This document shows positions 33,201-36,900 of a DNA stretch of 36,900 nucleotides, piece by piece; the stretch's first letter is position 1, and each line of letters opens with the position of its first letter. The notes under the pieces were generated by a model, which was not told where the DNA came from, made no database searches, and worked only from the letters and a program-made list of their open reading frames with translations. Both the position numbers and the translations under genes were made by a program. The stretch is from Escherichia phage SaltyDalty, in sequence record PP925825.1; one strand, given 5' to 3'.

Positions 33201-33461
33201 CTGAATATATTTTTGCGCCTGCGTTCCTGCGCGAAATTCCCACGTTACGCCGCTGAAGTTTTGGGAGCCGTCAGCGTTCTCAAGTGCCGTTCCGTCCAGG
33301 TAGATATCTTTGCCGGTTAGCTGCCCTGCAAACTCCCCTTCCCCAAGCGCAACGAGGATTTTTGCCTTCGCTACAGATTGCAGATCATCAGGCTGTTCGG
33401 TTGGGGTTCGGGAACTTGAGCTGCCGCCCTTGCGGCCCTTTAACACTTTTTCTGTAGCCAT
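30285..33461 (-). CDS. Central tail fibre / host specificity protein, lambda J-like
   Basis: 1058 aa; N-terminal and middle regions collinear with lambda J (e.g. YPNTALLYIEFDSSQF, WTLYQVAQYCDQRVPDGKGGSGTEPRYTCNVY, DPDKYARIDTGA). Confidence 0.85.
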   Translation of the reverse strand: MATEKVLKGRKGGSSSSRTPTEQPDDLQSVAKAKILVALGEGEFAGQLTGKDIYLDGTALENADGSQNFSGVTWEFRAGTQAQKYIQGIPGTENEISVGTEVSSTTAWTRTFTNTQLSAVRLRLKWPSLFKQENDGDLVGYSINYAIDLQTDGGIWHTVLNTSVTGKTTSGYERSHRIDLPQAGSTWTIRLRKITADANSAKIGDTMTLQSFTEVIDAKLRYPNTALLYIEFDSSQFNGSIPQISCEPRGRVIRVPDNYDPETRTYFGTWTGAFKWAWTDNPAWIFYDLVVSDRFGLGHRLSAANIDKWTLYQVAQYCDQRVPDGKGGSGTEPRYTCNVYIQDRNDAYTVLRDFAAIFRGMTYWGGNQIVALADMPRDVDYSYTRANVIDGRFTYSSSTTKSRYTTALVSWSDPDNAYADAMEPVFEQSLVARYGFNQLEMTAIGCTRQSEANRKGRWGILTNNKDRVVSFDVGLDGNIPQPGYIIAVADELLSGKVMGGRISEVNGRVIRLDRVPDATAGDRLILNLPSGASQSRTIQAVNGESVTVTTTYSETPQPEAVWLVESNELYAQQYRVVSVSDNNNGTFSITAAFHDPDKYARIDTGAIIDQRPISVIPPGNQSAPANIVISSFSVVQQNISVETMRVSWDQAKNAIAYEAQWRRNDGNWVNMPRSSTTSFDVPGIYAGRYLVRVRAINAAEISSGWGYSEEKTLTGKVGNPPKPVGFTATGINWGIRLNWGFPANTGDTLKTEIQYTANSDFSDPLLLSDVPYPSAEYTQLGLKAGQEFWYRAQLVDRTGNESGYTDWIRGMSNDNADDYLGDIADDFLTSADGERLTGDIDTNIEGILQNALANHGTVEHQWAQYGEVRADILVVKTTIAEVDNAMAELSTQVQAQIEDVTASLEDKLTAVVDASGASAIYTLKTGVRINGIMYNAGMSIAVLAQAGQPIVTRVGFNANQFVLMSGSGDTQYSPFAVVNGQVFISSAFIQDGTITNAKIGNFIQSNNYVAGSIGWRLDKSGTLEMNGATSGQGRLTLNNTRMDVYDQNGTLRVRIGQL

Positions 33462-33471
33462 ATTGCGCCCA

Positions 33472-33500
33472 TAAAAAAAGCCACCCGAAGTTGGCTTATT
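33472..33500 (-). terminator. Terminator-like hairpin immediately upstream of the J-like gene
   Basis: Stem GCCACC/GTTGGC with 4-nt loop (33480-33495), A7 on plus (T7 after the stem on minus), about 20 nt before the J ATG. Confidence 0.4.
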
Positions 33501-33515
33501 TCTGAAGAAAATTAG

Positions 33516-33782: not shown

Positions 33783-34048
33783 TGCTGATCCTCGACATAA
33801 ATTCCGGCGGAAATAATTGCCCCACCGATTCGCCGGCGACCATAAAGCAGCGGTACCGGGTAGCCCTGAGCAGCGGTGTTTGTCACTCCACCGAACGCGT
33901 ATGATGCGCGGTTATCTGCACTTTGCTTGCTGGCCAGTCCGGTTGGCTGAGGGGATAGCATTTGGACGATACCACCAGCCATCATACCAATACCTGCGCC
34001 GATCAATGGTGCTCCACCATATGCAGAGGTAACCACACCCACTACCAC
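33779..34048 (-). CDS. Tail assembly protein I-like, C-terminal domain only
   Basis: 89 aa; GGIVQMLSPQ ... PVPLLYGRRRIGGAIIS parallels the C-terminal region of lambda gpI; no N-terminal domain present. Confidence 0.5.
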   Translation of the reverse strand: MVVGVVTSAYGGAPLIGAGIGMMAGGIVQMLSPQPTGLASKQSADNRASYAFGGVTNTAAQGYPVPLLYGRRRIGGAIISAGIYVEDQQ

Positions 34049-34101
34049 TAATACCGCTCCGAGAATTGTTTGCAGTAATCCCGCTTTTTTACTTCCTATT
34101 A

Positions 34102-36900
34102 CTACAGGGACAATCCCGTCATCCAGTCGTCACGCTGAGCATCAGAAGCTGCGTAATATCCCTCCTGGTCGCGCAGGCGCTCTTCGAGGTAGCGCTTATT
34201 AAGTGCCAGCCCCTGCTGATAGAACGTCTCGTCGATTTCACCAGCCTGACGCTGGCGGAGAAGATCGGTATTCTTCTGCTCAAACTCCTTACGCAGATTG
34301 AACTGCTCCTGAAGTCTTTCACGGAACCTGGTTCCCTGCCCATAGCCCAGCAGTTGCGCTTCATTGGCTGCGCGGGCGCTGGCGTTACTGTCAGCAAGGT
34401 TGGCTTCGTAATTTCGCAGTTGCTCACGCAATTTAACCTGGTCAATGAGCGCAGCATTCTGCAATACCGTCTTTTTCTGGGCTTCTGTCAGAGAAGCAAG
34501 CTCGCCCTGGCTGACCTGGTATTTAACCTTCGCCAGTTCAGTATTCTGGCCTTGCAGGGCAATCTGCTCTTTTTGCTGCTTGATAAGGCGCTTATACACA
34601 TCCTCGGTTTTCTCGCCTTCGGTTTTACCACCCTTCGCCTTAGGTTTGTTGGCCTCATTATTCCGCCATTCAGCAAGACCGTTATTAATCAACTCCTGAC
34701 GGCCTGTCTGGAATTGCGGATCACTGGTTAACCCCAGGTCATCGGCTGCATAACTCAGACGCAGGCGCTCTTTGGCCTCACCCTTCAGGCGTGACAACTC
34801 AAGATCCCGACGGCTCTTTTCGAGGGCATCGGTTTGCTTTTTGTCGAGGTCGGCCTGAGGAAGTCTGAGAGGGACGTTCGCCAGCCCTTGCCGGGCCATT
34901 AATAGCTGATTTCCCAGCCCCAGCAGACGGTTAAATTCAGTATGCTGACCATTCATCATGATCATCGACTGATATACCGCATTCTGTCGCCAGGCTTGTT
35001 CGCGTATTAAATCATTGCGACGTCGCTCAATTTCTTCGAGAGCCTGCTGTATGCCGCGAGATTTATCTCGCATGTCATTTAATTTTCCCTCTTCAACAGC
35101 AAGTTGATCCGTAACGATAGCTATCGCTCTCAGTATATTTGCATCGTTCTCGCTGGTAATGCCCGGTTTTCCACGCGATGCATTCAAATCGTCGATCTGG
35201 TTCTTCAGCTCACCAACCTTTTTGGCTTGCTCATCAACCAAACGATTTTGCTCTACCAGAGCACCAACAGTTCTCCCCCTATTGTCGTCTGTTTCAGACA
35301 AAGACATGCGGGAAGTTTTTTCTCGTATTTCGTCGATTTGACTGGCGTATTCCTGGGCAGAGCGACGTGCCTGCTCCTGGTTTTGATACATCGCATACCA
35401 GGCTCCAGCACCCAACATAACTAAACCAGGAACTCCACCGATGAGACCAAGTGCACCACTCATGAGCCGAGTGCCGACGGATGTCACGCTATTGAGATTG
35501 CTTTGAGCCGAAACACGGTTTGCAAGGTTCCGGTTTAAGGAAGCCTGGGTCGCGGACAGACGCCTTTCTGCAGCAGCTTGAGCGTCAGAATTTTTTGCAG
35601 CCACCAGCCCTGCCTGTGCACGCTCAAGTGCAGTTCTGGCCCTGACTTTCTCTGTAGCAGAACCGCTGGCTAGAGCGGTAGTCAGCCTGGCCTGGGCTGC
35701 AGTGACTTTTGCTTCTGCCGCAGCAATTTTCTCTTGCTGCGCAGCCTGAACATCTGCGCTACGCGATCTCTGTACAGCTTGCTGAGCCCTATAAACCTCC
35801 GCCCTTGAGGCGGCAACGGCAGACTGTGCAGCCTTATCCTGTGCAACGGCAAGAGCAACCTCTGACTTAGCCGCAGAAATTAGCGCGCCGGTTGCGCTCG
35901 TGGCGCTAGTTACTACTCCACTGAGATACCTTGCCAGCCCAACGCCAACAAGTGCACCCGCCACTGTTGTGATCGTGGACATATTGTCTGCAACATCACT
36001 TAGTGCGCCGCTTACTGCCGAAGAGGTAAATGAATCAAGCGTTTGGGCAACTCCGTCTAGGCCACCAGATAGCGCATCGGTAGCACCTGTAGCCTGGTTG
36101 ACACCTCCAACCCATGCCATGAACGAGTTTGTGACTTTTTGCAGGGATCCGGAAACTGTTTGCGGCATGCTGGCAAACTCACCCTGTAATGAGCCCAACT
36201 GGCTCATTAATGCAGGAACAACCTTATCAATCGTAAGTTGCCCCTGGTCAGCCATGCTCTTCAGGTCTTTGCGGGCCACGCCCATTCCGGCGGCAAGTGC
36301 GCGGATAACACGATCACCTGCTTCGTTAACGGCGTTGAATTCTTCACCGCGAAGAACGCCCTGCGCCAGAGCCTGGCTGAATTGAGTGATAACAGAACTC
36401 GCTTCCTGAGTATTAGCCCCCGAAAGTTTAAGGCCGGTAGAAACAGCTTCGGTAATTTTCAGAACTTCGTCAGAGCTATACCCAAACTCACGCATTGAAG
36501 CAGCTGCGCGTGAAAAAAGGTTTGCGTTGTCTGAAAACGCGGTGCCAGTTCTTTGGCTGATTTCCATTAACTGGCGCTGAGAGGCAGCAAAATCATCAGC
36601 TGAAGATGATGCCTGCTTAAGACGGGCGTTTACTGAATTCCACTCATCAGCAATCTGCACGAGCTTACCAGTCGCAAAAGCGGCCGTAGCAGCAGCAGCG
36701 GCTCTTCCTGCCGATGCAAACCCAGCGGTCAGATCAGATAACGCCCTTTCGCTCTCTCGGGCGGCAGCGGCAGCCTGCCGACCGCCATTTTGCATGGTTC
36801 GGTAATAATCCTGCCCCATGCGTGAGGCGCGGGAAATTTCCGACTGGAATGACTGCGAGTTAGCGGAAATTTTGATTATTAACTCACGTAATGTTGCCAT
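34102..36900 (-). CDS. Tail tape measure protein
   Basis: 932 aa, alpha-helical and Ala/Gln-rich with typical tape-measure N-terminus; ATG is the last three bases of the window and gains a GGAGA RBS when the window start is appended. Confidence 0.85.
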   Translation of the reverse strand: MATLRELIIKISANSQSFQSEISRASRMGQDYYRTMQNGGRQAAAAARESERALSDLTAGFASAGRAAAAATAAFATGKLVQIADEWNSVNARLKQASSSADDFAASQRQLMEISQRTGTAFSDNANLFSRAAASMREFGYSSDEVLKITEAVSTGLKLSGANTQEASSVITQFSQALAQGVLRGEEFNAVNEAGDRVIRALAAGMGVARKDLKSMADQGQLTIDKVVPALMSQLGSLQGEFASMPQTVSGSLQKVTNSFMAWVGGVNQATGATDALSGGLDGVAQTLDSFTSSAVSGALSDVADNMSTITTVAGALVGVGLARYLSGVVTSATSATGALISAAKSEVALAVAQDKAAQSAVAASRAEVYRAQQAVQRSRSADVQAAQQEKIAAAEAKVTAAQARLTTALASGSATEKVRARTALERAQAGLVAAKNSDAQAAAERRLSATQASLNRNLANRVSAQSNLNSVTSVGTRLMSGALGLIGGVPGLVMLGAGAWYAMYQNQEQARRSAQEYASQIDEIREKTSRMSLSETDDNRGRTVGALVEQNRLVDEQAKKVGELKNQIDDLNASRGKPGITSENDANILRAIAIVTDQLAVEEGKLNDMRDKSRGIQQALEEIERRRNDLIREQAWRQNAVYQSMIMMNGQHTEFNRLLGLGNQLLMARQGLANVPLRLPQADLDKKQTDALEKSRRDLELSRLKGEAKERLRLSYAADDLGLTSDPQFQTGRQELINNGLAEWRNNEANKPKAKGGKTEGEKTEDVYKRLIKQQKEQIALQGQNTELAKVKYQVSQGELASLTEAQKKTVLQNAALIDQVKLREQLRNYEANLADSNASARAANEAQLLGYGQGTRFRERLQEQFNLRKEFEQKNTDLLRQRQAGEIDETFYQQGLALNKRYLEERLRDQEGYYAASDAQRDDWMTGLSL

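Follow-up and report, generated by a model that had tools for sequence, protein, structure and literature searches.

Escherichia phage SaltyDalty (sequence record PP925825.1) is an HK97-like temperate siphophage (Hendrixvirinae) whose 36,900-nucleotide (nt) sequence, referred to here as the window, holds a complete circular genome. Its tail-tip module very probably bears the mark of one recent deletion of ∼3.3 kb in an otherwise complete HK97-like phage, which would make the genome a tail-defective derivative. A single event would have run from tape measure codon 931 to I codon 81, and the losses would comprise M (the distal tail ring), L (the hub, with its Fe-S cluster), K, a lipoprotein-like gene, the N-terminal domain of I and the C-terminal domain of the tape measure protein. 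An earlier note on the same DNA had described the locus as a non-canonical tail-tip module; the comparisons below identify it instead as a canonical module carrying a deletion. The note had also offered a deletion joining the tape measure gene to the middle of I, with a tail defect as its result, and this part of its reading can now be mapped to the base, though the breakpoint falls at codon 931 of 1158 and not at the end of the tape measure gene.

The junction was mapped base by base against both sides of the corresponding region in a metagenomic contig (ENA ERZ27238162 k111_2366, hereafter L009), and also against HK544 and HK225. Window positions 36900..34109 agree with L009 3550..6341 at 2791 of 2792 positions, and window positions 34116..33516 agree with L009 9667..10267 at 601 of 601. 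The lone mismatch is the C/T position of an imperfect 8-bp direct repeat, GGA(C/T)TGTC, of which 7 of 8 bp are common to both sites. The parental copies of this repeat read GGGACTGTC in the tape measure gene and CGGATTGTC in I; in L009 they occupy 6334-6341 (GGACTGTC) and 9667-9674 (GGATTGTC), and the window retains one. At the junction L009 reads GACGGGACTGTC/TGAGG on the tape measure side and ATCCGGATTGTC/CCTGT on the I side, and the window reads GACGGGATTGTCCCTGT, within a junction-spanning sequence of GACGGGATTGTCCCTGTAG. The 3,333 bp that L009 carries between the repeat copies are absent from the window, and the junction holds no filler DNA. This segment contains tape measure codons 931-1158, M (112 amino acids, aa), L (252 aa), K (236 aa), a 173-aa lipoprotein-like open reading frame (ORF; p173) and I codons 1-80. 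The same breakpoints are obtained with other references, namely HK544 and AsXd-1 on the tape measure side and HK225 on the I side. Judged by these alignments, L009 can in effect be taken as the parent of this region before the deletion, and the locus combines a contiguous reference for both flanks, a breakpoint repeat with one copy kept and a junction free of filler, as in a microhomology deletion.

The alignment of the tape measure gene to L009 3550..6341 (full gene 1158 aa) and to AsXd-1 27961..30752 (1154 aa) is gap-free, and the match to its counterparts in HK544 (99%), AsXd-1 and LAU1 ends at window 34109, beyond which those three genes extend for a further 673-685 nt. The final Ser-Leu and the three consecutive stops that follow come from gene I sequence, read out of frame. 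The encoded protein carries PF20155 and PF06120 and lacks PF09718 (Tape_meas_lam_C), the lambda-type C-terminal domain that is present on every intact HK97-type (PF06120-bearing) relative and also on the lambda-type tape measure protein of contig L007. This absence, together with a match to PHROG 339 that covers only positions 3-892 of 1123, is consistent with a lost C-terminal domain. Set against L009, the gene is short by ∼228 codons (931-1158), including those for the tip-docking C-terminus. The stop at 34102, which had been taken as the end of the tape measure gene, does not hold as such: the native gene continues for those ∼228 codons in L009, and on the evidence of the alignment the stop is created by the deletion, out of frame, two codons beyond the junction. 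An in-frame fusion of the tape measure protein to I was considered and rejected, as the two genes are read in different frames and the junction is followed by three stops.

What remains of I is its C-terminal part, 100% identical to L009 9667..10004 and matching residues 82-202 of HK97 I (E 2e-40); homology to gene I of HK225 likewise begins at window 34114, at I codon ∼77-81. The window thus holds I from codon 81 onwards and no full-length I. Positionally, the remnant is equivalent to residues 135-223 of lambda gpI, the C-terminal portion resolved within the tip (PMC10721106). Its first remaining canonical start opens an 89-aa ORF 53 nt past the stop at 34102, and the earlier description of this ORF as matching only the C-terminal part of gpI is confirmed by PHROG 32 and by HK97 I. 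The GGAG that precedes its GTG is fortuitous, and the I fragment would have no assembly partners. In a short contig (L016 765..1342; Logan SRR8739642), I also appears as separate ORFs of 102 and 89 aa. The latter is identical to the 89-aa remnant of the window, and the DNA is 93% identical with an indel; this split is probably a frameshift or sequencing error, unrelated to the deletion in the window.

The proposal that the window represents the whole circular genome is borne out by a gap-free wrap and by an internal cos and attP. L009 aligns without gaps from window 1071 through 1 and then from 36900 to 34109, which closes the circle. The cos site lies at 8262/8263, and window 8262..1109 is 94.5% identical to HK97 1..7153. 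Window 1..8262 is colinear with the right end of Aeromonas phage AsXd-1, essentially gap-free, with 8,263 alignment columns for 8,262 bases. The attachment site lies at ∼26456 and is intact: contig L020, the closest integrated relative, is 99.9% identical over 18248..26456 and then diverges into bacterial pncB, whereas the AsXd-1 phage genome runs on across window ∼26456, where the L020 homology ends. By this contrast, the window carries attP. Since the whole circle is in the window, the missing genes cannot sit outside it. The remaining gene content is that of a temperate phage, with a CI-like repressor, a Cro-like protein, an O-like initiator, a primase/helicase, Q, holin, endolysin and spanin; HNH, both terminase subunits, portal, protease, capsid, connectors, tail tube and the G/T chaperones; and an integrase and morons that include glycosyltransferases and DinI. 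The head and proximal tail genes are 94-95% identical to those of HK97, AsXd-1 and LAU1.

Homologues of M, L and K were sought throughout this genome. With M, L, K, the I N-terminus and the tape measure C-terminus of L009 and HK97 as tblastn queries, the circularised window returned only noise (E ≥ 0.03) besides the known I remnant. Hidden Markov models (HMMs) built from 8 M, L and K sequences of relatives were run with filters off on 939 stop-to-stop segments, on which an I profile found only the remnant (E 3e-60). For M (PF05939), the best values in the window were E 2.7 by tblastn and E 0.83 by HMM across all six frames. For L (PF05100, the hub with an Fe-S cluster), tblastn gave nothing at E ≤ 10 and the best HMM value was E 2.9, and for K (JAB/MPN plus NlpC/P60) the best values were E 0.2 and E 1.1, respectively; no K-type Pfam domain occurs in the ORFs of the tail region. 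No M, L or K was therefore recognized in the window by tblastn, HMMs or profile comparison, in agreement with the earlier note.

The same note had suggested that distal tail functions might be supplied by unrecognised proteins. On such a reading the tip would be functional and non-canonical, with the 88-, 90-, 205- and 389-aa proteins in place of M, L and K. These four ORFs do lie near J and have no Pfam family of known function, yet all four have orthologues or PHROG members in phages that encode M, L, K and a full I. In hhalign comparisons the 88-aa and 90-aa ORFs reached probabilities of ≤ 0.5% with the M profile, and the 205-aa ORF one of 0.2% with the L profile. An identical 88-aa protein is found on 17 public contigs, and in intact relatives the ORF is flanked by full-length I and J. 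Among the 10 listed places on these contigs, the order tape measure-M-L-K-x-I stands ahead of the ORF wherever the contig reaches the upstream genes, with a tape measure protein of 1047-1158 aa bearing PF09718, an intervening ORF of 136 or 173 aa and a full I of 192-196 aa. HK225 has M, L, K and a full I, an ORF in the position matching the 88-aa ORF, an annotated rho-independent terminator in the matching position upstream of J, and DNA-level counterparts of J and of part of the fibre gene; its annotation also shows Cor and two ORFs downstream of J that correspond to the 90-aa and 205-aa proteins (PHROG 557 and 425). Because counterparts of the 88-, 90-, 205- and 389-aa proteins coexist with M-L-K-I in other phages, they are not substitutes for the missing genes, and by this comparison the Cor-like, 90-aa, 205-aa and 389-aa genes are accessory. 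A tape measure protein that has lost its tip-docking C-terminal domain and an I that is cut mid-domain and out of frame also speak against a working alternative tip, which is effectively refuted and retains a negligible probability.

The alignment with relatives that had been proposed as a check for M-L-K-I finds these genes in L009, in HK225 and in the other intact relatives. The L009 module is an intact HK97-type module whose tape measure gene matches that of the window over its first 930 codons and whose I C-terminus and 88-aa ORF are identical to those of the window. Among related phages are HK97, HK544, HK225, AsXd-1 and LAU1, along with the circular 'plasmid' NZ_CP104840.1. The relatives have PF09718, M (PF05939), L (PF05100), K (PF14464 plus PF00877) and a full I, none of which is present in the window.

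A deletion of this form would be explained by illegitimate, microhomology-mediated recombination, either slipped mispairing or end joining, at the 8-bp imperfect repeat. The event would be very recent, because both flanks are identical to the intact relative L009. Its consequences can be anticipated from better-studied phages. Assembly of the lambda tail, which is initiated from J, needs each of I, M, L and K (PMC3224144), and the tail tip consists of a gpM hexamer forming a ring, gpL and gpJ trimers and a gpI tripod (residues 135-223), with the C-terminal coiled coil of gpH, the tape measure protein, sitting on it (PMC10721106; PMC11101478). In TP901-1, removal of the C-terminal 30 aa of the tape measure protein leaves heads only (PMC5099701). 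By analogy, the tail initiator complex, in which J, I, L, K and the C-terminal end of the tape measure protein are followed by M, would be unable to form once L, M, K and this C-terminal end are missing. The phage is predicted to integrate, confer immunity and conversion genes, excise, replicate, package from cos and lyse its host, and yet to produce no functional tails, releasing tailless, non-infectious heads of the HK97 type.

Several considerations weigh against reading the locus as a recent deletion in a real, tail-defective genome. The 31-nt pattern spanning the junction had 0 matches in each of viral_contigs, genome_contigs and metagenome_contigs and is hence a single observation; the evidence for the junction is the recorded sequence itself; the excised circular form, with attP and cos joined, is slightly unexpected for a phage unable to spread; and the functional consequences are drawn by analogy from lambda and TP901-1. 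The first of these would also be expected if the join were an artefact of assembly, of the consensus or of a chimeric read, or came from a minority deletion variant that the assembler picked up, and the real phage kept the full H-M-L-K-I block. This explanation is improbable, though it gains from the uniqueness of the junction across the searched collections: a 1.2-kb junction query found no record spanning both sides in INPHARED phages, complete E. coli genomes or PLSDB. An exact-protein look-up, moreover, had no entry for the truncated tape measure protein, for J or for the 389-aa fibre. It also gains from the circular attP form, which is typical of sequencing from particles or induced cultures, sources normally dominated by viable phage. 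The two sites, however, share only 7/8 bp, far under the k-mer or overlap length of an assembler, and repeat collapse cannot account for the join for that reason; repeat-driven misassembly was rejected on the same ground. A junction without filler, between flanks that are perfect copies of a contiguous reference, is moreover typical of deletions by illegitimate recombination. As for the excised circle, either spontaneous induction of a lysogen or a particle preparation containing tailless heads could account for it.

A genuine deletion would still leave room for a helper-dependent element, whose heads are completed by the tails of a co-resident lambdoid or HK97-like prophage and which transmits in this way. 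This reading draws support from an intact head, head-tail connector, terminase, cos, int and attP and from the recovery of the genome in excised, circular form; its 36.9 kb also amount to ∼92% of an inferred 40.2-kb parent, a length that by analogy with lambda should fall within cos-packaging limits. Set against this are the absence of any sign of adaptation, as the tube, chaperone, J and fibre genes are kept untouched; the 100% identity of the flanks to an intact relative, which points to a very recent event and not to a maintained lineage; and a junction not seen in any other sample. Such helper dependence is thus very unlikely, and slightly less likely still is the further proposition that this is a naturally circulating helper-dependent derivative and an early step from phage towards a tail-stealing satellite. 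Any wider consequence of the deletion would follow only if helper-dependent spread were true.

Capsid-forming satellites of the cf-PICI type have their own capsid and packaging genes but no complete tail, and use helper tails. Like them, the window encodes capsid and packaging and cannot complete a tail; unlike them, it is a 36.9-kb full phage with immunity, replication, lysis, tube, chaperones, J and fibre, and nothing in it points to a satellite architecture, that of a small island lacking tail and lysis genes and with satellite-type regulation. The recent deletion proposed here has parallels in classical lambda mutants with a tail defect (amber or deletion alleles of H, M, L, K or I) and in defective lambdoid prophages, in which tail-initiator genes are lost and head genes remain intact. 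The phenotype expected from such lambda mutants is that of DNA-filled tailless heads (PMC3224144; TP901-1, PMC5099701). The window differs from these mutants and prophages in that five genes are struck by one natural deletion at a 7/8-bp microhomology, and from decaying chromosomal prophage remnants in that it was recovered as an excised circle. The locus would provide a clean example, resolved to the base, of a microhomology deletion by which a lambdoid phage is inactivated though it can still excise, replicate, package its DNA and lyse the host. For annotation, the suitable label would be that of a tail-defective deletion derivative in which the tape measure gene is truncated and I is a pseudogene, and not that of a phage with a novel minimal tail tip.

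Features of the deletion locus, the adjoining tail genes and the attP region of the window (positions on the 36,900-nt stretch).
Feature	Position	Strand	Remarks
Truncated tape measure gene, 932 aa	34102..36900	-	930 native codons, then Ser-Leu and stops TAG TAA TAG
Deletion junction	34109..34116	-	8 bp GGATTGTC common to both parental sites, crossover in GGA at 34116-34114
I remnant	33779..34114	-	codons 81-192 of 192; PHROG 32 positions 87-201 of 203, E 5e-45
89-aa GTG ORF	33779..34048	-	first canonical start left in I remnant; GGAG 8 nt upstream
88-aa ORF, moron-like	33516..33782	-	PHROG 2571 (unknown function), E 1e-18; ATG overlaps I stop (ATGA)
Terminator-like hairpin and T-run	33478..33497	-	just upstream of J
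J, 1058 aa	30285..33461	-	intact; PF24801, PF13550, PF09327; PHROG 31, E 0
Cor-like lipoprotein	30022..30288	-	downstream of J; PHROG 1119
90-aa protein	29753..30025	-	PHROG 557
205-aa protein	29133..29750	-	PHROG 425
389-aa side tail fibre	27954..29123	-	PHROG 1980, PF25670
110-aa ORF	27357..27689	-	C-terminal part matches 'UmuD-like' PHROG family; no Pfam match
DinI-like gene	26699..27028	+	near attP
Integrase	25022..26407	+	beside attP
Tail tube, 147 aa	1086..1529	-	intact; PF16460, PF06222, PF06223 cover tail genes at 60..1529
Chaperone G	694..1077	-	intact
T frame	407..685	-	intact
116-aa moron	60..410	-	followed by terminator directly before tape measure start codon at 36900

Downstream of the I remnant, the succession of an AT-rich 88-aa ORF, a terminator-like hairpin and J is as the earlier note had given it, with correct coordinates; the ORF has a G+C content of 40.8%, against 50.8% for the genome. 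A pattern across the I/88-aa boundary had 0 matches in genome_contigs. J is a recognizable member of its family, with FNIII-A_GpJ, Phage-tail_3 and Phage_Tail_Tip domains, and its DNA is 92-94% identical to the 1057-aa J genes of contigs L006, L007 and L012.

Upstream of the tape measure gene, the tube of the window (1057..1529, minus strand) is without the ∼90-aa C-terminal extension of HK97 gp12 (234 aa), and HK97 7154-7495 is swapped for 52 nt in this region. The L009 homologue of the tube has 234 aa, like that of HK97, with weak Ig_2/Ig_3 matches. A second lesion, in the tube gene, was considered and rejected: AsXd-1 and LAU1 share the short form and are colinear with the window, without frameshifts. 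On this comparison the short tube is natural module variation.

The reverse complement of the window opens exactly on the tape measure ATG, and the Shine-Dalgarno sequence and upstream terminator of this gene lie at window 1-45. Such a gene-aligned start suggests re-orientation by software and a circular extrachromosomal assembly contig.

A moron-type gene block occupies 8901..12044 on the minus strand, with the lysis cassette on one side and HNH/terS on the other. It holds a 197-aa protein of a glucosyltransferase family (PHROG 854), a 485-aa protein of a glycosyltransferase family (PHROG 1579) and a 183-aa uncharacterised protein, none of the proteins of the block having a match in Pfam. The block may be a module for surface-polysaccharide modification (lysogenic conversion). 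In the attP region, the 110-aa ORF may be a gene fragment.

Insertion sequences interrupt two of the related contigs, one between terS and terL (L021 19186..20166; DDE_Tnp_1) and one in the early region (L018 6102..7082). The record named 'Enterobacter phage LAU1' (L005 25725..30772) holds ISEcp1-blaCTX-M-15 and the chromosomal genes yeaG and yeaH, and for this reason appears to be a prophage region, not the genome of a phage. The pncB flank of L020 is 79% identical to E. coli pncB, and the tail region is ∼85% identical to E. coli prophages. The host is probably a genus of Enterobacteriaceae other than Escherichia.

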